Origin: Candidatus Levyibacteriota bacterium
Lineage (GTDB): Bacteria > Patescibacteriota > Microgenomatia > Levybacterales > UBA12049
Length of the DNA: 64,000 bases
Reading direction: 5' to 3'
Assembly: GCA_029260965.1 (NCBI GenBank)
Contig: JAJDCG010000001.1
Coordinates: 248,012 to 312,011, forward strand
Of this stretch, positions 49,822-58,609 are shown piece by piece. A program made the translations under genes and the position numbers. The notes under the pieces are model-generated. The model saw nothing but the letters and a program-made list of their open reading frames with translations. It was not told where the DNA came from and did not search any database. Each line of letters begins with the position of its first letter. The first letter of the stretch is position 1.

Positions 49822-50673
49822 CTACTTTTTGCTTAAAGTGTTTATTATTTCCAGAACTAGAGGGTGATTTCCTGCTAGATTACCACTTTGATTTATGTAA
49901 ACTCCATATTCACGATTGAATTTTACTGGAAGCTGTTGGATCTTTAGTATTTTTTGTTTAATTTCAGCACGAACAAAATTTTCAGGAAGAAGTGCCACTC
50001 CACATCCGAGAATTGCGAGCTCTTTCATAAATGATGGACTGGTTGATTCTGCAAAGACCAACGGATCAATGCCTTTTTTGGTAAAGATAGTATCAGTTTG
50101 TTGTCTAGTTCTTGAGCTTTGATTGTAAAGTATAAATGGGATTTCCTTTAGTCTTTTTTTAAAAACTATAGAAGAAACAGGGGTAAGTGTTTCCGAAAAG
50201 GCTTTTATAAGTGAGATGTTTTTATCAAAATTTTCTTTTTGATCGTTCACACATACAGCAATATCAATAGTTCCAAGTTTGAGTTGCTCAAATAATTTTC
50301 CAGAGTTATCAATTATCAATTCAAAATCATAATTTGAATTGTTAATGTTTTTTTTGAAGTAATTTCCAAGCCTTAGAGCAGCATTATCAAACATGCCAAT
50401 TGTATAAGTAGGTTTTAGAGTTTTTCTGACTTTAGGGTTTTTGGCATTTTTCCAGAGTGTAAGTATTTTTTCAGAAAGAAGCAAAACAGATGCCCCATCA
50501 GGGGTAAGCTGTAGTGATCGTCCTTGATGCACGAAAAGCTTTGTGTTGAGCACTTTTTCAAGTCTTGAAATTGATTGCGTGAGTGCTGATTGAGTTATAA
50601 AAACCTCTTTTGCTGTCTTGGTCAGGTTACCATTTTTGGCAACAAGTGTAAATCTGCGTAATTCTTCAATCAT
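49822..50673 (-). CDS. LysR-family transcriptional regulator
   Basis: N-terminal HTH MIEELRRFTLVAKNGNLTKTAKEVFITQSALTQSISRLEKVLNTKLF and a C-terminal LysR substrate-binding domain. Start preferred at the ATG complementary to 50673-50671; the track ORF extends to 50763. Confidence 0.75.
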   Translation of the reverse strand: MIEELRRFTLVAKNGNLTKTAKEVFITQSALTQSISRLEKVLNTKLFVHQGRSLQLTPDGASVLLLSEKILTLWKNAKNPKVRKTLKPTYTIGMFDNAALRLGNYFKKNINNSNYDFELIIDNSGKLFEQLKLGTIDIAVCVNDQKENFDKNISLIKAFSETLTPVSSIVFKKRLKEIPFILYNQSSRTRQQTDTIFTKKGIDPLVFAESTSPSFMKELAILGCGVALLPENFVRAEIKQKILKIQQLPVKFNREYGVYINQSGNLAGNHPLVLEIINTLSKK

Positions 50674-50744
50674 AAGTATTACTAATATACCATAAAATCT
50701 ATTAATTTTACAAATACTTTTACCTGTGCTAAATTTATATTTGT

Positions 50745-50832
50745 TGCCCATACCACTCTGCACTGCGTACCGCCAGTCAGATGGTACGAAAGTACATAGT
50801 CTTACTGGCGGGCGCGGTGGCAGATGTCACTC
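50745..50832 (+). ncRNA. Candidate structured RNA, possibly small SRP (4.5S-like) RNA: a GC-rich, long imperfect hairpin with a GNRA tetraloop
   Basis: GC-rich island in an AT-rich intergenic region. The apical stem is GGUAC-GAAA-GUAC and the next stem is CCAGU...ACUGG. The outer arms are CACUGCG/CGCGGUG and UACCGCC/GGCGG. On the minus strand the loop would be UUUC, so the plus strand is favoured. The SRP assignment is tentative. Confidence 0.25.
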
Positions 50833-50840
50833 ATTAGCTT

Positions 50841-52064
50841 ATGAAGAAAAGAAAGATAAAAATTGCGATCGTTGGAGTTGGTAATTGTGCCTCGTCCCTA
50901 GTTCAGGGAATCTACTACTATAGAAATGCCAAAGAAAGTGAATTCATTCCTGGGGTGATGCACGTTAATTTTGGGGGATATCAAATCAGCGATTTGGAGG
51001 TGGTTGCTGCTTTTGATGTAAATAAAAACAAGGTTGGTCGTGATGTGGCTCAGGCAATATATGCAGAGCCCAATAATACAGCAGTTTTTGCAAAGGTTCC
51101 CAAAATGGGCGTGAAGGTGATGATGGGTCCACGCCTTGATGGAGTCAATTACACAACAGAGCCTTTGGTACCTGTTGCCAAGGAAAAACCTGTTGACGTC
51201 GTGAAAGTTCTCAAAGAATCAGGTGCTGATGCTGTCATTAATTATCTTCCTGTTGGCTCTCAGGAGGCAACAGAGTTTTACGCACAAGCAGCAATTGATG
51301 CAGGGTGCGGATTTGTAAATTGTATTCCTGTGTTTATCGCATCAGACAAAAAATGGGCAGCCAAATTCAAGAAAGCAGGTCTTCCTGTAATCGGAGATGA
51401 TATAAAGGCACAGGTTGGATCAACCATAATTCATCGTACTCTTACCACTATGTTTATTGATCGCGGTATGAAGATTGAGCGAACATATCAACTCAATAAT
51501 GGTGGTAACACAGATTTTTTAAACCTCATTGATCGTACACGGGGTAAGTGGAAAAAGATCAGCAAAACAGAGGCAGTAACAAGTCTCATTGATCAGAGAG
51601 GGCAAAATATAGAGCCTGATAATGTGCACATAGGCCCATCTGACTATGTGCCATGGCTCAAAGACAACAAGCTAGGATTTATAAGAATTGAGAGTAAGCA
51701 CTTTGGTGATGTGCCGATGAATGTTGAAATAAGACTTTCTGTCGAGGATTCTCCCAATTCAGCAGGTGTAGCTATTGACTCAATCCGTTGTCTCAAGTTG
51801 GCACTAGACAATGGGCTGAGTGGTGCTATTATCGAACCTGCTGCTTATTTCAAGAAACATCCACCTGTACAGATCGAGGATAGGAGGGCTCGCGAGCTGG
51901 TAGAAAAATTTATCAAAAAGTATGGATATAAGAAAGTTGCAAAGTTCAAGAAGAAGAATGGATTAGGCTTGAAAAAAATAGTTAAGAATGGGTTTCCTAA
52001 CGAGAAGAAACGAAACGGGAACGGATTTAGTAGGCCATTCCTTCAGCTACGAGTAGATAAGTAA
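50841..52064 (+). CDS. ino1: myo-Inositol-1-phosphate synthase, archaeal-type short form
   Basis: 407 aa. An N-terminal Rossmann region (IKIAIVGVGNCASSLVQG) and a catalytic region (GDDIKAQVGSTIIHRTLTTMFIDRGMKIERTYQLNNGGNTDFLNL) align to the short archaeal and bacterial MIPS pattern. Confidence 0.7.
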   Translation: MKKRKIKIAIVGVGNCASSLVQGIYYYRNAKESEFIPGVMHVNFGGYQISDLEVVAAFDVNKNKVGRDVAQAIYAEPNNTAVFAKVPKMGVKVMMGPRLDGVNYTTEPLVPVAKEKPVDVVKVLKESGADAVINYLPVGSQEATEFYAQAAIDAGCGFVNCIPVFIASDKKWAAKFKKAGLPVIGDDIKAQVGSTIIHRTLTTMFIDRGMKIERTYQLNNGGNTDFLNLIDRTRGKWKKISKTEAVTSLIDQRGQNIEPDNVHIGPSDYVPWLKDNKLGFIRIESKHFGDVPMNVEIRLSVEDSPNSAGVAIDSIRCLKLALDNGLSGAIIEPAAYFKKHPPVQIEDRRARELVEKFIKKYGYKKVAKFKKKNGLGLKKIVKNGFPNEKKRNGNGFSRPFLQLRVDK

Positions 52065-52077
52065 GAAAACTTCTTTA

Positions 52078-52674
52078 TTAGAGTGTCTTGTATGCGTATC
52101 TGAAGCGCTGGTAAACTGTGTAAAGAGAAAGAGCGCCAAGAACTAAAAATATTAATTCTGCAAGATTAAATCCTGATAAGGAGATGTTCTGAAAAATCGC
52201 GTAAAATATCAGTGCGATAATTGTTAACAGATACCTTTCTGTTCTCTCTATTAGTCCTATTCCGTTTGCAAAGTTAGCACGTTTTTCACTTCTTACACCA
52301 CCCTGGGCTCTGATGTAGCTTATGAGAAATGAAAAAAGAAGTACAGGTGCTGTAATTTCCCAGCGTACAATTCCAGCAAAGGAAAAGGCGGTGATTGTTA
52401 AGAAGTCTCCAATTCTGTCCATTGTTGAATCTAGAAACCCACCAAAGGATGTAACTTTATTTTGTTTGCGAGAGACCATGCCGTCAAGTAAATCCAGTAG
52501 ACTACCTATAAAAGCAATAGTTGCAAGAAAATACATCCCATTCACAACAAAGACAAAAAAGAGTAGAGGTGGTATACTTCCAATTAAGGTAAGGACATTG
52601 GGATTAACGCCTGATAATGCACTTGCCAGGGGTTCAAAATATTTTTCAATTTGTGGTTTTACAATACTAAGCAT
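52078..52674 (-). CDS. CDP-alcohol phosphatidyltransferase, probably a phosphatidylinositol-phosphate / archaetidylinositol-phosphate synthase-like enzyme
   Basis: Signature D-G-x2-A-R-x8-G-x3-D-x3-D is present as DLLDGMVSRKQNKVTSFGGFLDSTMDRIGD. The protein is 198 aa with about six TM helices. Its position next to MIPS suggests an inositol-phosphate acceptor, which is inference. Confidence 0.7.
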   Translation of the reverse strand: MLSIVKPQIEKYFEPLASALSGVNPNVLTLIGSIPPLLFFVFVVNGMYFLATIAFIGSLLDLLDGMVSRKQNKVTSFGGFLDSTMDRIGDFLTITAFSFAGIVRWEITAPVLLFSFLISYIRAQGGVRSEKRANFANGIGLIERTERYLLTIIALIFYAIFQNISLSGFNLAELIFLVLGALSLYTVYQRFRYAYKTL

Positions 52675-52676
52675 TT

Positions 52677-53333
52677 ATGAAAAAAAAGTACAAAGTTGAT
52701 CTTCATACACATTCAATTATATCACATGATGGCGGTATTTCCAGGAGGCAGTATAAAGAAATTTTAAACACAGGAATTCTTGATTATGTAGCTATTACTG
52801 ATCATAATGATGTGAGCTTTGCGAGGCAAATGCAAAAGGAAATAGGAGAAAGGATAATTATAGGAGAGGAGATAAAGACAAAAAGTGGGGAGGTAGTAGG
52901 TTTGTTTTTGAAAAAAACCATTGCTTCGGGAATGGTTCTGGAAGATACAATTTTTGAAATTAAAAAGCAGGGTGGTCTTGTTTATGTGCCACATCCTTTT
53001 GAGACAGTAAGATCAGGAATTAAGAAAAAAGATTTGACAAGGATAGCAGAATACGTTGACATAATCGAAGTTTTTAACGCACGTGGCTTTTTGCGTGGTA
53101 AGCCAGATGCTGCATATTCCTTTGCCTGGGAAAAGAAAATTTCTATGGCAGCATCATCCGATGCTCATTGTAAATGGGGAATAGGAAATGCATATAGCAG
53201 TATTGAAAGTAAGCCCACGAAAAAAACACTATCATCAAGTCTTAGACAGGCTGAGTTAACAAGAGGTTACGCGAGTTGGTATTCAGCGTTTTGTCCATCG
53301 ATTAATAAATTTAAAAACAAAATTTTTATATGA
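52677..53333 (+). CDS. PHP-domain phosphoesterase (TrpH/YciV-like)
   Basis: DLHTHS motif, downstream His/Asp ligands (ITDHND, VPHPFE, SSDAHC), 218 aa. The start is 3 nt from the divergent phosphatidyltransferase gene. Confidence 0.6.
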   Translation: MKKKYKVDLHTHSIISHDGGISRRQYKEILNTGILDYVAITDHNDVSFARQMQKEIGERIIIGEEIKTKSGEVVGLFLKKTIASGMVLEDTIFEIKKQGGLVYVPHPFETVRSGIKKKDLTRIAEYVDIIEVFNARGFLRGKPDAAYSFAWEKKISMAASSDAHCKWGIGNAYSSIESKPTKKTLSSSLRQAELTRGYASWYSAFCPSINKFKNKIFI

Positions 53334-54250
53334 GCATTGATAATACAAAAGACATATTATTTATAATCAATCCCAAAGCAGGCGATGGCAAGGCTTTTTC
53401 AAACTGGACTAAAGCAAGGGGAAGGTATGGGTTTTTGCCAAAAAATCCTGTGGATGTAACACGAGAGGATATAAAAAAAATTATTTTTACAAAAAAGCCC
53501 AAAAAAATCGCAATAGGTGGCGGAGATGGTACGGTGAATGCTGTTGTTGGTGTTGTATCGGAAATGAAAAAAAAACCAGATCTTTGTATAATTCCCCTTG
53601 GCTTCGGAAACGCTCTTTCATATTGTTTGGGAGCAGAGACAATAGACAAAGCGATAGAGGTGATTACTGATCCTTCTCGAAAAATAACAATCGATCTCAT
53701 GAAAACAAACATCAAAGAACACGAGATAGGGGTATTCAATATCAGTCTTGGTTATGATGCGCATATAGTGTTTGATATACAGAGGTTGCGCTATATAGGA
53801 ATAGGATCATATGTGGTTTCGGCTGTTCAGAATATATTTACGCATCCTGAGAATGAGATTACCCTGACAATTGACCATGAAGTTAAGATGACTGCAAAAG
53901 CATCCTCTCTTGCGATAGCAAATTGTCCTGTAATAGGTCAGAATTATATAATTTCTCCAAATGCTCGGATGAATGATGGGTTTTTGGATTGTACTATTTT
54001 TTCGACAAAATATACTTATATCAGAAACTTGAGACTGAAGGGTTTCAAGCATCCTCTTTATTCAGATCTTGGAAAGGTTAGGTTTAAGGCAAGGCATATA
54101 AAAGTTGATGGAGAACCATTTTTACAAATAGATGGGGATCCTGTTGTACAGAAAGAGGGGGTTGAAATTGAGATAATTCCATCATGCATTACCTTTTTGA
54201 GAAATAGTGATGATAAGATAGATCAGGAGTTCTTGCCTTTTGTAACATGA
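53330..54250 (+). CDS. Diacylglycerol/lipid kinase family protein (DAGK_cat, YegS/DgkB-like)
   Basis: Motifs FIINPKAGDGKA, IAIGGGDGTVNAVVG and PLGFGNALSYCLG. Its start overlaps the upstream PHP gene by 4 nt. Confidence 0.7.
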   Translation: MSIDNTKDILFIINPKAGDGKAFSNWTKARGRYGFLPKNPVDVTREDIKKIIFTKKPKKIAIGGGDGTVNAVVGVVSEMKKKPDLCIIPLGFGNALSYCLGAETIDKAIEVITDPSRKITIDLMKTNIKEHEIGVFNISLGYDAHIVFDIQRLRYIGIGSYVVSAVQNIFTHPENEITLTIDHEVKMTAKASSLAIANCPVIGQNYIISPNARMNDGFLDCTIFSTKYTYIRNLRLKGFKHPLYSDLGKVRFKARHIKVDGEPFLQIDGDPVVQKEGVEIEIIPSCITFLRNSDDKIDQEFLPFVT

Positions 54251-54801
54251 TAGAAAGATTATTGTTTGTTCTATGGTTTTTTTTGCCAAGTGGTGTTGCC
54301 AACGTAGCGGCATTTTTTTCGGGTCAAGTTAGCTTTCTCAAGAGGTATAATGCTCCGGTTGATTTTGGATTAAAATTTAGAGGTAAAAGAATACTTGGTA
54401 GTAATAAAACAATAAGAGGATTTGTAGTTGGGATTATCTCGGCAATTGTAATTGTTTATTTTCAGATTTTTCTTTATTCGCAATTTGAATTTATAAGAGG
54501 ATTTGCTTACATTGACTACAGTTTGATAAACCCTTTACTTTTTGGTTTTCTTTCAGGATTCGGGGCGCTCGCAGGTGATAGTATAAAGAGTTTTTTTAAA
54601 CGTCAGAATAAAATAGCGCCAGGGGTTTCATGGTTTCCTTTTGACCAGATAGATTTTATAATAGGCGGAATTATCTTTACTTCATTTTATATACGTCTTA
54701 GTTTTTGGGATTATTTTTGGGTTTTGGCACTCTGGTTCTTGATTCATCCTTTTACAACATTTCTTGGCTTTCTTCTCAAATTAAAAAAAGAACCACTGTA
54801 A
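54247..54801 (+). CDS. CarS-like (DUF46) CTP:phosphatidate/archaetidate cytidylyltransferase homolog
   Basis: 184 aa with five to six TM helices. The motif PVDFGLKFRGKRILGSNKTIRGF resembles the CDP-archaeol synthase motif (..DFGK.FRGKRI.GD.KTWRGF). The 4-nt overlap with the lipid kinase gene suggests translational coupling. Confidence 0.5.
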   Translation: MIERLLFVLWFFLPSGVANVAAFFSGQVSFLKRYNAPVDFGLKFRGKRILGSNKTIRGFVVGIISAIVIVYFQIFLYSQFEFIRGFAYIDYSLINPLLFGFLSGFGALAGDSIKSFFKRQNKIAPGVSWFPFDQIDFIIGGIIFTSFYIRLSFWDYFWVLALWFLIHPFTTFLGFLLKLKKEPL

Positions 54802-54845
54802 AATCAATTTTCTGATTTATGTAATTTGTATTATAATAAAATTAT

Positions 54846-56786
54846 ATGCCAGAAGCAGGTGCTGATTTTCTCAAAAAAAAATACGATCTTCACAATAGCC
54901 CAGAAGTTTTAAGCGCTGCAAGGAGAACGGAAATAAAAACGGGAAGAAGAGTGCTGCAATCTCCTGAACCACGTATCCAAAACTATCTTGCCCGCTTCAA
55001 AGAAATTGTTGATGAGAAAGATGAGGACAAGAAAAAAGAAAATATCCAAGCTCTGAAAAGAGTTCTTCTTCCCAAGTTCGTGACCAAATTTAAGGATATC
55101 CCCGATAGTTACTGGAAGCTGCAAGAGCGAATACTCCGTGAACGCGGACAACAGGGAGATTATGACCGTTTCTCAGATGAAGAGAAGAATAAGGCAAAAC
55201 ATGAGATCGCCGATGGTCTCTTGTCTGATCAGCAATCATCACTTGAGCAGTGGATTGATTATCTTGCATCGGATGACTCTTCATACATTCCTGATCATAT
55301 AAAGTATTGGACATTTAGAAGCGTTATTGGCCTTGCTGAGTATGACAAAGACAAGAAAGAGTTTCCTGAAAGATCAAAAGGAACAGTTAAGATGTTTCCT
55401 GATATAAATCAAGAAGCCCTTTCTACCATGATTGATTGGTTTTTGAAGAATCAGAAAGGGGAACCCGTTACTCTTGAGGGATATGAAAGGGACCTGACTG
55501 ATGAGCAGAAAAACCAAGCCAGACAATTTATCTCGCAGGAAAATTTTGCCAAGCTTTATGGTTTTGTCAATGAACTCATCAGGCCAATTCCAGAGCATCT
55601 TATTCCAATAACCAAAGGGAAATGGGTCAAGTATGAGCAGGGCTCGGATCACACTCCATTGGTGCAGTCAATACGCGGACGGGGAACAGGCTGGTGCACG
55701 GCTGGTGAAAATACCGCTAAAACCCAACTGGGAGGTGGAGATTTTCACGTTTTTTATTCCAACGATGATGATGACAATCCCACAATTCCCCGCATTGCAA
55801 TCCGTATGGAGGGGGAAAAGATTGCTGAAGTTCGTGGAATTGCAGCCAAACAAAACCTTGATCCTTACATGACGGAAATACTTGAGAAAAAGCTTGATGA
55901 GTTCCCTGATAAAGACAAATATCTCAAAAAAGAACATGACATGAGACAGTTAACAGAGATTGATAAAAAAGTAAAAAGAGGGGAAGCGCTTGGAAAAGAT
56001 GAACTTGTTTTTCTTTATGAAGTAGATTCCAAAATTCAAGGATTTGGGTATCAAAGCGATCCTCGCATTAACGAATTGAGAACTGGTAGAGATATGCACG
56101 AGGATATGCTGACTATTTTTGATTGTACAGAGGATCAAATTGCTCATGCAACAGACCAGATGAATGAAAACACCAAAGCCTATGTTGGTAAGCTTACTCC
56201 TGGAATTTTTGATCAAATTCAAAAATACAACATTGAGCATGTCTTTACTTCTTTTCCTGAAGGAAGAATACGGCTTGAGTCGCTCACAATTGGTGGTAAG
56301 AGCGTAAAAGAGCTTCAAGAAGAAATGCGAAGTGAAAATATAAATATTAGTGGTTACGTAAGAGATATGCTGGAAAGTCCTGATTTTGTGACGCAACAAA
56401 ATAAGGAAGACATTGATCTGGTTCGTTTGAAAGTTGGGGATCTTGGTTTGGGAGGAAGTCCCACGACTGATCAACTATATGAAAAAGCAAAAGAACTCGG
56501 GTTAGATTTGTGTCCTGCGGAAGTTGGACCGCAGATGCGGCTGACATATAAGGATCAACCCCTTTACGAATATTTCAATATAGGAATGAAACAAATTGCC
56601 GATTCCGATGGCTGTCCGGATGTCTTCACGCTGGATCACGGTGACGATGGTTTGTGGTTGAGTGACTATTGGGCAAGGCCGGAGGACGGGTGGGCGCCTG
56701 TCGATGAGTTTGTTTTTCGTCTCCGGCCGAGCGGAAGCGAGGCAAGCAAGTCTCCTTTGAAATTTTGGCCCTTTAGACATTCTTGA
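54846..56786 (+). CDS. DGR target protein: 646 aa, no signal peptide or TM, with a C-terminal variable region
   Basis: The C-terminal segment ...DSDGCPDVFTLDHGDDGLWLSDYWARPEDGWAPVDEFVFRLRPS is encoded by the VR. Many of the varied codons correspond to AAT/AAC/AAG codons in the TR. The N-terminal roughly 580 aa have no recognised domain. Confidence 0.7.
   Translation: MPEAGADFLKKKYDLHNSPEVLSAARRTEIKTGRRVLQSPEPRIQNYLARFKEIVDEKDEDKKKENIQALKRVLLPKFVTKFKDIPDSYWKLQERILRERGQQGDYDRFSDEEKNKAKHEIADGLLSDQQSSLEQWIDYLASDDSSYIPDHIKYWTFRSVIGLAEYDKDKKEFPERSKGTVKMFPDINQEALSTMIDWFLKNQKGEPVTLEGYERDLTDEQKNQARQFISQENFAKLYGFVNELIRPIPEHLIPITKGKWVKYEQGSDHTPLVQSIRGRGTGWCTAGENTAKTQLGGGDFHVFYSNDDDDNPTIPRIAIRMEGEKIAEVRGIAAKQNLDPYMTEILEKKLDEFPDKDKYLKKEHDMRQLTEIDKKVKRGEALGKDELVFLYEVDSKIQGFGYQSDPRINELRTGRDMHEDMLTIFDCTEDQIAHATDQMNENTKAYVGKLTPGIFDQIQKYNIEHVFTSFPEGRIRLESLTIGGKSVKELQEEMRSENINISGYVRDMLESPDFVTQQNKEDIDLVRLKVGDLGLGGSPTTDQLYEKAKELGLDLCPAEVGPQMRLTYKDQPLYEYFNIGMKQIADSDGCPDVFTLDHGDDGLWLSDYWARPEDGWAPVDEFVFRLRPSGSEASKSPLKFWPFRHS
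56595..56729 (+). repeat. DGR variable repeat (VR)
   Basis: 135 bp, colinear with the TR at 57064-57198. About 20 substitutions fall at TR adenine positions (A to G, T or C), plus one T-to-G difference. All other positions are identical. Confidence 0.8.
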
Positions 56787-56902
56787 ACCTTTGACTCTTT
56801 GATACTTTGACACTTCGTTTCTTTCCAAATTTTTGTTATACTTTTCTTGGAGAGGTTTTATGCAAATGGCTACGGCTTTTGCAGACTTTTCCGATGAATA
56901 CA

Positions 56903-56931
56903 AAATTGAGAGCGCGGAAGGCTATGGTTTT
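56903..56931 (+). terminator. GC-rich hairpin downstream of the DGR target gene (CGCGGAA-N10-TTCCGCG)
   Basis: A 7-bp perfect stem with a 10-nt loop, about 120 nt after the target stop. The T-tract following it is weak. Confidence 0.2.
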
Positions 56932-57063
56932 CCGCGGAGGATTTGTATCTTATCTTAAAAAACAGAAGAGACTTGGTGTTTTGTACTGGCTGATTTTAGA
57001 TCACAAGTAAAATACAGCTAAATGTTTTTTTGCATAAGCAGTGAGATAGATGGTGCAAGGCGC

Positions 57064-57198
57064 ATTACCGATTCCGATGGCAATCCGAATGTCTTCAAAC
57101 TGAATCACAATGACGATGGTTTGTGGTTGAATGACAATTGGGCAAAGCCGAAGAACGAGTGGAATCCTGACAATGAGTTTGTTTTTCGTCTCAGAAAG
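57064..57198 (+). repeat. DGR template repeat (TR)
   Basis: Adenine-rich at the variable codon positions (AAT/AAC/AAG). It shares the 3'-terminal motif AGCGAGGC with the VR-flanking sequence, which may be IMH-like. The track ORF 57022..57246 is just the TR read in frame and is not a gene. Confidence 0.8.
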
Positions 57199-57219
57199 TG
57201 CCTTTCTTTTCCGCCCGCA

Positions 57220-57543
57220 TCAAGCGAGGCGGTTTTTCTTATATGAATTTTCCGAACTTCTTTTCCATCCCCCAAGCATTTTTCCAATTTCATCAAGTTT
57301 TAGGCCAACCACCTCGTAATGTTTGTGAGAAATTATTTTTCCCTCCCACGCTACGGAAATAAGAAACTTAAGAACATCCAGCGTCAAAATACATTCTGAA
57401 ATTTTTTCCGTTTTGTCTGATTTTTGGGTAAAATATGTAGTGTAGGAAAGCTCAAGCAGGTCAAGAAATTTATTTTCAATTCTTGAGCCGATCGTGAAGC
57501 GTGCACCTTTTGCAATATGAGGCGAAATATTCATCCAGATCAA
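57220..57543 (-). CDS. avd: Avd-like accessory variability determinant (four-helix-bundle, TIGR02436-type)
   Basis: 107 aa. The C-terminal region ...LKLDEIGKMLGGWKRS matches the L.EIGKML.GLI ending of Avd / 23S-rRNA-IVS four-helix-bundle proteins. It lies between the TR and the RT on the opposite strand. Confidence 0.55.
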   Translation of the reverse strand: MIWMNISPHIAKGARFTIGSRIENKFLDLLELSYTTYFTQKSDKTEKISECILTLDVLKFLISVAWEGKIISHKHYEVVGLKLDEIGKMLGGWKRSSENSYKKNRLA

Positions 57544-57556
57544 ATATCCCTCTTTG

Positions 57557-58609
<1,053 letters not shown>

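Follow-up and report, generated by a model that had tools for sequence, protein, structure and literature searches.

The five adjacent genes located at positions 50841 to 54801 of the 64,000-nucleotide stretch of DNA analyzed here (the window) raise the question of what is made by a cluster that combines a myo-inositol-phosphate synthase (MIPS), a CDP-alcohol phosphatidyltransferase, a PHP-family phosphoesterase, a lipid kinase and a CarS-like cytidylyltransferase. All the open reading frames lie where the original prediction had placed them and HMM searches agree with the domains it had named; the host is bacterial, as the window also encodes rpoB/rpoC and S12/S7. We favor, with a probability of about 60%, a salvage-type route by which a Levybacteria-like member of the Patescibacteria would make an inositol phospholipid. 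Most likely, this tiny host-dependent bacterium adds an inositol head group to membrane lipids that it borrows, by means of two archaeal-type enzymes.

Regarding the organization of the locus, a LysR-family regulator with HTH_1 and LysR_substrate domains is encoded on the minus strand (49822..50673), divergent from MIPS. The ORF call reaches 50763 from a GTG; when its own sequence and relatives were compared, the true start appeared likely to be the ATG at 50673 (MIEELRRF...). A divergent LysR homologue is found 5' of MIPS in 16 related loci, and the AT-rich intergenic control region (50674..50750) contains a conserved box, TATTACTAATATACCATAAAATCTATTAATTTTACAAATA, also present upstream of MIPS in four of them; promoter-like hexamers on both strands of this region did not exceed the shuffled expectation in number. 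The MIPS leader carries a long GC-rich hairpin on the plus strand (50757..50823; RNA fold -44.4 kcal/mol, z = -5.3), which is genome-specific, with no counterpart in relatives or elsewhere in the window and no family match in Rfam. The transferase gene lies on the opposite strand, a layout left out of the original prediction, and is convergent with MIPS (13-nt gap) and divergent from PHP (2-nt gap); therefore the five genes do not form a single operon and the transferase is not co-transcribed. The 4-nt overlaps that had been described for the cluster occur only between PHP and kinase (53330-53333) and between kinase and CarS (54247-54250).

The full order LysR-MIPS-transferase-PHP-kinase-CarS was found in eight related loci, with protein identities of ~50-65% (~60-90% for MIPS), and a transferase-PHP-CarS core in ~56 of 80 species genomes; because both recur, the gene grouping exceeds chance. 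This triad ranges over Levybacteria, Saccharibacteria, other Patescibacteria and one archaeal contig (L052), which encodes S3Ae and in which the three genes show 4-nt overlaps. MIPS, the kinase and the divergent LysR join the triad only in a Levybacteria-like clade; MIPS is present in 7 of 80 genome loci, and the kinase is at the equivalent place in 8 of the 80 genome loci as well as in ~23 of 80 loci from metagenomes, placing both outside the widely conserved core. Thus the expected conservation as a unit holds broadly for the triad, which by these comparisons appears to be the evolutionary core, but not for MIPS and kinase, which are clade-specific additions. Most Saccharibacteria loci contain no visible source of inositol phosphate or phosphatidate.

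The transferase (52078-52674, minus strand, 198 aa) is a class I CDP-alcohol phosphatidyltransferase (PF01066, 56.5 bits) of the membrane, in which hydrophobic segments were detected. It scored 142.7 bits with the AIP synthase model NF040950 and 95.3 bits with the PIP synthase model NF045883, with far lower values for DIPPS (38.5 bits) and pgsA (35.5 bits) and only 36 bits for the BT_1523 model; its best PDB matches, 5D91 and 6H53 (RsPIPS and MtPgsA1), are PIP synthases, the match to the DIPP synthase 4MND being weak (E=6e-5). The motif D61xxD64G65xxS68R69...G78xxxD82xxxD86 is present, as are the inositol-phosphate-binding residues S119, R122, R147 and R190. [quoted passage not shown] The protein is thus assigned, from its sequence, to the AIP/PIP-synthase type, apart from PgsA and DIPP synthase, as had been anticipated.

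The PHP-family metal-dependent phosphoesterase (52677-53333, plus strand; soluble, 218 aa) matched PHP_C PF13263 with 27.7 bits, the PHP domain below threshold and CehA/McbA NF038032 with 52.7 bits (cut-off 80). Its AF2 model (pLDDT 94) is confidently predicted to be a PHP barrel in which the metal ligands are conserved, and Foldseek matched it to 3E38, 2ANU, 7UG9 and 7RTY with probability 1.0; residues H10, H12, D18, D42, H43, E64, E65, H106, E131, D162 and H164 are invariant, together with three arginines (R112, R136 and R140). PHP is immediately upstream of CarS in 60 of 80 CarS-anchored loci, and each of the 38 PHP-anchored metagenome loci with sufficient downstream DNA has CarS 3' of PHP. 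Co-occurrence of PHP with a transferase carrying the arginine pair gave a contingency table of 56/4/3/17, for loci that are not phylogenetically independent; loci without PHP are confined to a few clades, and no PHP was found in any bacterial CarS locus whose adjacent transferase lacks the inositol-phosphate arginine pair. Moreover, in locus L074 of a related Patescibacterium, with CarS, PgsA-like and PgpA-like genes, a known phosphatidyl-X-phosphate phosphatase (PgpA-like) occupies the PHP slot. Because of this linkage and of the L074 slot, we infer that PHP is a candidate non-orthologous PIP phosphatase, an assignment put forward in the original prediction and supported by the comparison of gene neighbourhoods. 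A phosphatase is required at the step following PIP synthase, the first one assigned being the PgpA-family protein BT_1525 (PMC4634129, PMC9246714).

It could also be argued that PHP has another job linked to inositol lipids, e.g. hydrolysis of free inositol phosphate, of CDP-lipid or of nucleotide by-products, or trimming of glycolipid intermediates, PIP being either the end product or dephosphorylated by a different enzyme. We consider this unlikely, although several observations favor it: the characterised PHP proteins closest to it act as nucleases or as phosphatases of nucleotides (RNase AM, pAp phosphatase) rather than of lipids, five distant relatives are fused to GT4 glycosyltransferases, and three loci have an arginine-pair transferase adjoining CarS with no PHP. 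To our knowledge, no PHP-family lipid phosphatase has been described, and a literature search found no PHP-type PGP phosphatase. However, all CDP-alcohol transferases release CMP and all CarS enzymes PPi, whereas PHP is missing, these three loci apart, only beside transferases that are not of the inositol-phosphate type; the PgpA-like gene in the slot at the PgsA locus also argues against another job, and the conserved phosphate-binding arginines would be needless in a free-inositol route. In addition, the PHP gene overlaps or directly adjoins its neighbours in most loci, which suggests tight co-expression with them. A PIP phosphatase is therefore the role we prefer for PHP, which may supply the pathway's missing last step.

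MIPS (50841-52064, plus strand, 407 aa), of the short prokaryotic type, matched Inos-1-P_synth PF01658 (114.8 bits in the HMM search) and TIGR03450 end to end (residues 6-358 against model positions 1-355 of 355) with 472 bits, lower than the cut-off of 638; its C-terminus is a basic tail of ~50 aa. Its identity to the MIPS proteins of Levybacteria and Saccharimonadales is 75-91%, and it is linked to transferases of the window's type in five loci and many among L084-L126, and to the Saccharibacteria type in another four. In the case of the kinase (53330-54250, plus strand; soluble, 306 aa), membership in the YegS/DgkB/Rv2252 family is indicated by DAGK_cat (58.2 bits), YegS_C (52.8 bits) and a GGGDGT motif, with 85.8 bits for TIGR00147 (cut-off 118.65); it probably converts diacylglycerol into phosphatidate. 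The CarS-like membrane protein (54247-54801, plus strand, 184 aa) proved to be related to CarS as foreseen, scoring 80.5 bits with PF01864 and 118.4 bits with the CDP-archaeol synthase model NF003114 (cut-off 148); the sole PDB match of its family profile is A. pernix CarS (ApCarS, 5GUF, E=3e-13). The motifs G106A..GD111..SFFKR119 and PFDQ134xD136 are invariant, relatives are encoded in no fewer than 532 species genomes, and DPANN Woesearchaeota have close homologues (42-47% identity). The claim that the CarS-like protein and the short MIPS are typically archaeal holds for the former, with NF003114 as best model; MIPS, best matched by the actinobacterial-type TIGR03450, is not specifically archaeal.

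Characterised CarS enzymes use the archaeal isoprenoid archaetidic acid, and the module might make ether isoprenoid inositol lipids, with scavenged archaetidic acid or unsaturated DGGGP activated by the CarS-like protein and converted by the transferase into archaetidylinositol phosphate. The archaeal top models of both membrane enzymes (NF003114; NF040950 at 143 bits versus 95 for PIP synthase), the triad on the archaeal contig and the close Woesearchaeota homologues fit this explanation, which nevertheless seems improbable to us. The cluster contains a diacylglycerol kinase of the DgkB/YegS type, a family known as bacterial, and neither the window parts surveyed (1-14.6 kb and 39-64 kb) nor the genes that recur as neighbours across 160 related loci revealed a G1P dehydrogenase, a GGGP synthase or a DGGGP synthase. 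The known hosts of Saccharibacteria, to which many of the carriers belong, are ester-lipid Actinobacteria; moreover, lipid-tail specificity in the CarS and transferase families is reportedly loose (PMC7852524).

The proposed route is preferred also over a scheme in which the CarS-like protein would act as a lipid kinase using CTP, as yeast Dgk1 or the dolichol and phytol kinases do, and CDP-lipid would come from a CdsA encoded elsewhere. Such kinases are members of the CTP_transf_1 superfamily, to which the protein has a partial match (30 bits); this scheme is nonetheless very improbable, CarS being by far the closest branch and an ATP-type lipid kinase being already in the cluster. A CDP-alcohol transferase is adjacent to CarS in 69 of 80 species loci and, because it requires a CDP-lipid donor, this near-universal adjacency fits a supplier of that donor. 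Finally, di-myo-inositol phosphate, whose synthesis shares the logic of MIPS, CDP-alcohol transferase and phosphatase and is echoed by the weak DIPP synthase match, or another soluble inositol compound is hardly credible as the product, since the cluster lacks an inositol-phosphate cytidylyltransferase domain, includes two enzymes acting on lipids, the kinase and the cytidylyltransferase, and the DIPPS score is far below those for AIP and PIP synthases.

In the route to an inositol phospholipid that we propose, MIPS, under the divergent LysR regulator, would convert glucose-6-phosphate into L-myo-inositol-1-phosphate, while the soluble kinase would phosphorylate diacylglycerol from outside to phosphatidate; the CarS-like enzyme, replacing the bacterial CdsA, would use CTP to turn this lipid phosphate into CDP-lipid, from which the transferase would form phosphatidylinositol phosphate and CMP, and PHP would remove the terminal phosphate to yield phosphatidylinositol. 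Family memberships, retained catalytic and inositol-phosphate-binding residues and conserved gene linkage underlie this route, and the inositol phospholipid head-group reading of the cluster is supported. All the NCBIfam models scored for the cluster proteins fell below their curated cut-offs, and therefore specificity cannot be read from homology and we infer every substrate, as well as the PHP step and the scavenging of the lipid backbone.

Compared with known systems, the actinobacterial PI pathway (Ino1, CdsA, PgsA1/PIP synthase and the Rv2252 kinase) likewise has a short MIPS, best modelled by TIGR03450 in the window, a YegS/Rv2252-family kinase and two steps via PIP, and its transferase, which uses inositol phosphate, shares both phosphate-binding arginines and the DxxDGxxAR...GxxxDxxxD core with that of the window (PMC4634129). 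It differs in using CdsA where the window has a CarS-type supplier; furthermore, the window's transferase scores higher with the archaeal AIP synthase model, its genes are clustered with PHP linked to the transferase, and its host presumably cannot make its own lipids. The inositol-lipid cluster BT_1522-BT_1526 of Bacteroides thetaiotaomicron, which makes PI via PIP, similarly groups MIPS and PIP synthase with a phosphatase dedicated to PIP, for which PHP is the candidate in the window (PMC9246714); however, that phosphatase (BT_1525) is of the PgpA family, and the window lacks a sphingolipid (PI-DHC) synthase and has the CarS-like and kinase genes in addition.

The archaeal archaetidylinositol pathway (CarS, AIP synthase and MIPS) is approached by the window in that CarS-family and AIP-synthase models give the top scores and the triad is found on an archaeal contig, but the window is bacterial, has a bacterial-type diacylglycerol kinase, and its proteins miss both NCBIfam archaeal equivalog cut-offs. 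The E. coli-type CdsA-PgsA-PgpA route to phosphatidylglycerol follows the same logic of CTP activation, transfer to a phosphorylated alcohol and dephosphorylation, with glycerol-3-phosphate instead of inositol phosphate and a phosphatase of another family. As for PHP, the known phosphoesterases (TM0559 2ANU, BVU_3505 3E38, RNase AM 7UG9/9ETK, PsfC 7RTY, HisK and YcdX) share with it the distorted TIM-barrel and the N-terminal HxH, DH, E, H, DxH metal-ligand pattern; identity is at most 24% and the closest structures are uncharacterised, the window's subfamily being set apart by its fixed lipid head-group gene context and its three invariant arginines.

The five genes for which an inositol phospholipid head-group route had been predicted were found at exactly the proposed coordinates (50841-54801) and they are indeed adjacent; their strand layout, however, had to be corrected, with the transferase lying on the minus strand. 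Encoded on the plus strand are a myo-inositol-phosphate synthase (MIPS, 50841-52064, 407 aa), a PHP phosphoesterase (52677-53333, 218 aa), a predicted lipid kinase (53330-54250, 306 aa) and a CarS-like protein (54247-54801, 184 aa), with 4-nt overlaps between PHP and kinase and between kinase and CarS. The CDP-alcohol phosphatidyltransferase (52078-52674, minus strand, 198 aa) is convergent with MIPS across a 13-nt gap and divergent from PHP, with 2 nt separating the two start codons, thus the five neighbours are not a single transcription unit. A promoter and terminator scan of 50500-55100 gave counts not above those of shuffled sequence, so operon boundaries cannot be claimed from it. A gene for a LysR regulator precedes MIPS in divergent orientation, and the remainder of the window carries usual bacterial genes (dnaK/grpE/dnaJ, clpB, rpoB/rpoC, rpsL/rpsG). 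Among the matches listed, the closest relatives of all five proteins belong to Candidatus Levyibacteriota and further Patescibacteria, and the assignment of the window to a Levybacteria-like organism is based on such relatives.

Immediately after the cluster we detected a complete diversity-generating retroelement (54846-58609), comprising a target gene (54846-56786, 646 aa) with no Pfam match, a variable repeat (56595-56725) differing from the template repeat (57064-57194) at 21 of 131 nt, with template adenines accounting for 20 of these mismatches, an Avd-like ORF (57220-57543, minus strand; NF033474 65.5 bits, below cut-off) and, after it, the reverse transcriptase ORF (57554-58609).

The class of the transferase was judged by model scores together with diagnostic residues. 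The protein belongs to PF01066 (56.5 bits against a Pfam cut-off of 22) and has retained the whole catalytic DxxDGxx(S)R...GxxxDxxxD motif (D61, D64, G65, R69, G78, D82 and D86); the alanine position of the signature is S68 here and A in the other 65 sequences aligned, namely 64 locus relatives and the PgsA-like outgroup of locus L074. The NCBIfam models for archaetidylinositol phosphate (AIP) synthase (NF040950, 142.7 bits) and phosphatidylinositol phosphate (PIP) synthase (NF045883, 95.3 bits) ranked on top by a wide margin, ahead of DIPP synthase (38.5), the BT_1523-type (36.4) and pgsA (35.5), yet both scores fall under the equivalog cut-offs (180 and 170 bits, respectively). When solved structures were ranked, the order was Renibacterium PIP synthase (RsPIPS, 1e-9), M. 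tuberculosis PgsA1 (MtPIPS, 6e-9), DIPP synthase (6e-5) and S. aureus PgsA (3e-3). In the PIP synthases the phosphate of inositol phosphate is bound by two arginines, R153/R191 in RsPIPS corresponding to R155/R195 in MtPIPS (Clarke et al., PMC4634129); in HMMER alignments this pair corresponds to R147 and R190 in the protein studied here, and MtPIPS S132 and K135 to its S119 and R122. Taking together the model ranking, the arginines and the intact motif, the acceptor is most likely inositol phosphate, and the product would be a PIP that still needs a phosphatase. Saccharibacteria transferases, 25-32% identical to the one in the window, have AIP/PIP synthase as their best models (~100 bits), with pgsA unlisted, and keep the arginine pair.

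A grouping of the transferase with PgsA or with DIPP synthases, which would have spoken against the original prediction, is not what was found. For PgsA, TIGR00560 gives 35.5 bits (cut-off 109.1), whereas the neighbour gene in L074 scores 97.6; for DIPP synthase, NF041135 gives 38.5 bits (cut-off 580). An NTP-transferase domain, as expected of an associated inositol-phosphate cytidylyltransferase, is absent from the protein and from the cluster, and a DIP-osmolyte pathway was rejected on this absence, on the weak DIPP synthase score and on the presence of a lipid kinase and a lipid cytidylyltransferase in the cluster.

The 184-aa protein, for which a lack of relationship to CarS or CdsA would have been equally damaging, is CarS-related by its profile and structure matches. 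It matches PF01864 over its full length (80.5 bits, cut-off 22; residues 1-181, model positions 1-172 of 175) and the CDP-archaeol synthase model NF003114 with 118.4 bits, missing the equivalog cut-off of 148. The sole PDB relative retrieved by a profile built from 24 members of the family was the Aeropyrum pernix CDP-archaeol synthase ApCarS (5GUF, E=3e-13), and the invariant columns, which include GA..GD..SFFKR and PFDQxD, line up with conserved ApCarS segments. The match to CdsA/CTP_transf_1 (PF01148) is partial (residues 53-123, model positions 169-230 of 264, 30 bits), which indicates relatedness to CdsA at superfamily level only. The family is by no means rare among bacteria: CarS-like relatives were found in at least 532 species in a scan using one genome per species, most of the carriers being Saccharibacteria, Levybacteria and other Patescibacteria and a few DPANN Woesearchaeota. 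NCBI automatic labels on some of the matches listed read "CDP-archaeol synthase" and "PHP domain-containing protein".

The identity of MIPS was upheld by PF01658 (114.8 bits) and by TIGR03450, matched end to end (model positions 1-355 of 355) with 472 bits, below a cut-off of 638 bits that is tuned to Actinobacteria; the archaeal type that had been claimed for it did not hold. MIPS is 75-91% identical to Levybacteria and Saccharimonadales proteins among the matches listed, the corresponding values being ~40-65% for CarS, PHP, transferase and kinase; such high conservation could reflect strong constraint or recent transfer. Window MIPS has a lysine-rich C-terminal tail of ~50 aa, which its closest homologue among the matches listed (P0242, 365 aa) is without. 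The kinase matched DAGK_cat (58.2 bits) and YegS_C (52.8 bits), contains the sequence GGGDGT and scored 85.8 with TIGR00147 (cut-off 118.65), and is thus of the YegS/DgkB/Rv2252 type, with a putative lipid substrate.

Two features were observed in the region before MIPS. The mechanical LysR ORF (49822-50763) opens with a GTG at 50763, but the conserved N-terminal sequence MIEELRRF begins only at 50673; the intergenic stretch thereby gained (50674-50750) contains an AT-rich box, TATTA(C/A)TAATATA...ATTAATTTTACAA, common to the related loci L002, L006, L008 and L011, that is probably the LysR operator with the divergent promoters. The 5' leader of MIPS holds a long, GC-rich hairpin (50757-50823, -44.4 kcal/mol, z = -5.3), which has no counterpart in the corresponding intergenic regions of relatives and does not recur in the window or the fetched loci; it may represent a structured leader or a short palindromic insertion. 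No Rfam family was matched, either by the whole window at gathering threshold or by the MIPS leader, hairpin included, by E-value.

To what extent the neighbourhood is conserved was examined in two sets of loci. In the first, 80 species loci centred on CarS-like genes, strong conservation was confined to two neighbours: a CDP-alcohol transferase (69/80) and PHP (60/80), the latter invariably sharing the strand of CarS and immediately preceding it. The window-type kinase was present in 8 of these loci, MIPS in 7, LysR in 6 and a second DAGK-like family in 11; MIPS lies beside a Saccharibacteria-type transferase in L020, L060, L145 and L160. In the second set, 80 metagenome loci around PHP relatives, CarS follows PHP (directly or after the kinase) in all 38 loci having at least 1.7 kb of downstream DNA, overlapping the PHP end in L149, and a transferase is found in 46 of the 57 loci with enough upstream DNA. 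The full order LysR-MIPS-transferase-PHP-kinase-CarS recurs in L002, L011, L084, L086, L087, L095, L099 and L104. These recurring loci show that the neighbourhood is conserved, as the original prediction required, but at two levels: the five-gene unit is limited to a Levybacteria-like clade, and the true conserved unit is the triad of transferase, PHP and CarS, which is kept across the phylum. It is the gene set that is kept rather than the order, as seen in a Saccharibacteria locus (L017, 8001-10495) with the order CarS, transferase, PHP and a second arginine-pair transferase. Several Patescibacteria-like loci (L003, L007, L011-L013, L036, L063, L074) come from records labelled Gammaproteobacteria, Limnocylindrales/Limnocylindria or Pseudomonadales; taxon labels in these collections are not to be trusted outright.

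The PHP protein was placed in its superfamily by PHP_C (27.7 bits, cut-off 21.3), with a CehA/McbA-type match at 52.7 bits, below its cut-off of 80, and PF02811 giving only 18.3 bits against 26.4. Its AlphaFold model (pLDDT 94.2, pTM 0.91) displays a PHP barrel, and Foldseek returned 3E38, 2ANU and 7UG9 with probability 1.0; the closest structures are the uncharacterised BVU_3505 (3E38) and TM0559 (2ANU), RNase AM (7UG9) and PsfC (7RTY). By sequence, the PDB yielded marginal matches only (TM0559, E=0.04; a profile match to 9ETK, 6e-5). The metal-ligand positions H10, H12, D42, H43, E65, H106, D162 and H164 are invariant, and so are the arginines R112, R136 and R140. The fold search with the predicted model confirms the PHP superfamily and by itself gives no substrate.

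A substrate is suggested by the company that PHP keeps. In 56 loci it has an arginine-pair transferase no more than 2.5 kb away, in 4 it has none, in 3 the transferase is without PHP and in 17 neither is present; moreover, the bacterial loci whose adjacent transferase has no arginine pair (L039, L042, L043, L046, L047, L055, L059, L061, L069, L072 and L074) are all without PHP. The nominal Fisher p for the association, 6e-11, overstates the case, as the loci share ancestry and the PHP-less ones fall into few clades of the CarS tree, so that few independent events are counted. A role as a generic hydrolase of the PPi released by CarS, or of the CMP released by any transferase, would not predict this pattern and was rejected; the pattern is the one expected if PHP acts specifically on behalf of the inositol-phosphate head group. 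In L074 (7971-9603), which comes from another Patescibacterium whose record bears a mistaken Pseudomonadales label, the CarS-like gene precedes the PgsA-like gene and then a PgpA-like gene (59 bits), a set that would form a parallel activate-transfer-dephosphorylate route to phosphatidylglycerol; here the position taken elsewhere by PHP is occupied by a known family of phosphatidyl-X-phosphate phosphatases. No protein of the cluster has a PgpA domain, the PgpA-like gene being seen only in this PgsA-type locus. From these associations PHP is a probable PIP phosphatase, a proposal to which we give roughly even-to-moderate odds.

Some distant PHP relatives with 37-40% identity (P0470, P0494, P0502, P0503, P0508) are fused to a GT4 glycosyltransferase C-terminus, another (P0489) carries a class I methyltransferase as fusion partner, and in P0488 a P-type ATPase fragment appears to be attached. 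The GT4 fusions were considered as a Rosetta-stone clue; their GT4 parts are generic, not PimA-specific, therefore no function was drawn from them.

The best-supported reading of the cluster remains the route originally predicted: the observation was confirmed and all the computational tests run support the interpretation, with family membership, diagnostic residues and linkage established and all substrates inferred. The lipid kinase would produce phosphatidate, the CarS-like enzyme would convert it into a CDP-lipid, MIPS would supply inositol phosphate, the transferase would join both into PIP and PHP would release phosphatidylinositol (PI). With regard to the lipid tail, diacyl lipids are favoured by the DgkB/YegS-type kinase and by the fact that many carriers have bacterial hosts, and a DAG-kinase-type gene in a bacterial host likewise suggests a diacyl substrate for the CarS-like enzyme, while the best-scoring models of both membrane enzymes are archaeal. 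A further scenario, which we regard as improbable, is that triad-bearing Patescibacteria apply their archaeal-type CarS and AIP-synthase-like enzymes to isoprenoid ether lipids of archaeal partners and so make archaetidylinositol-type lipids in a bacterial membrane, the module having been transferred between CPR and DPANN and PHP being the AIP/PIP phosphatase that the archaeal-type pathway has long lacked.

There is a triad on an archaeal contig (L052, 6650-8516), where a divergent CDP-alcohol transferase, PHP and CarS are arranged with 4-nt overlaps; the contig encodes ribosomal protein S3Ae and, as read by eye, a Bud32-like kinase, and it is labelled Methanosarcinales, for which it looks atypical by eye. 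In a Woesearchaeota locus (L075, 6034-9307) the genes next to CarS encode a putative decarboxylase (identified by eye), an archaetidylserine synthase and an IMPase-like protein. A rough NJ tree with midpoint rooting places the archaeal CarS proteins together with a minor part of the CPR lineages and outside the main clades of Levybacteria and Saccharibacteria. The tree and L052 are compatible with a transfer between the two radiations and do not settle its direction; the archaeal triad also bears on gene exchange between these episymbiotic groups.

Patescibacteria are thought to depend on their hosts for membrane lipids. Against this background, the route outlined here offers a concrete, testable and widespread form of lipid tailoring by kinase, CTP activation, inositol-phosphate transfer and dephosphorylation. 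To our knowledge, the phosphatase acting after a PIP/AIP synthase has been identified only in Bacteroides, and we know of no assignment in mycobacteria and archaea; a tightly linked and conserved PHP is a candidate that makes the question testable. The main value of the module lies in this candidate and in a bacterial role for CarS-family enzymes. The idea of re-heading scavenged lipids is not new in general, since Starr et al. 2018 proposed by KEGG for one Saccharibacterium a path from scavenged phosphatidate via CDP-diacylglycerol to phosphatidylglycerol, cardiolipin or PI, and from PI to PIMs (PMC6031116); if PI is made by the module, it could anchor PIM-like glycolipids as predicted there. 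In the literature searched we found no CarS-type activator in CPR, no transferase-PHP-CarS triad, no PHP-type lipid phosphatase and no inositol lipidomics of Saccharibacteria; CarS is not treated by Coleman et al. 2019.

Compared with the system of Bacteroides, whose PIP phosphatase is BT_1525 of the PgpA family (PMC9246714), the only one found in the literature searched, a PHP protein doing the PgpA job would be a non-orthologous replacement. The module is a variant of the known two-step PI pathway, in which non-orthologous enzymes appear to have taken over two steps, with a protein of the CarS family where CdsA would be expected and PHP in the phosphatase slot.
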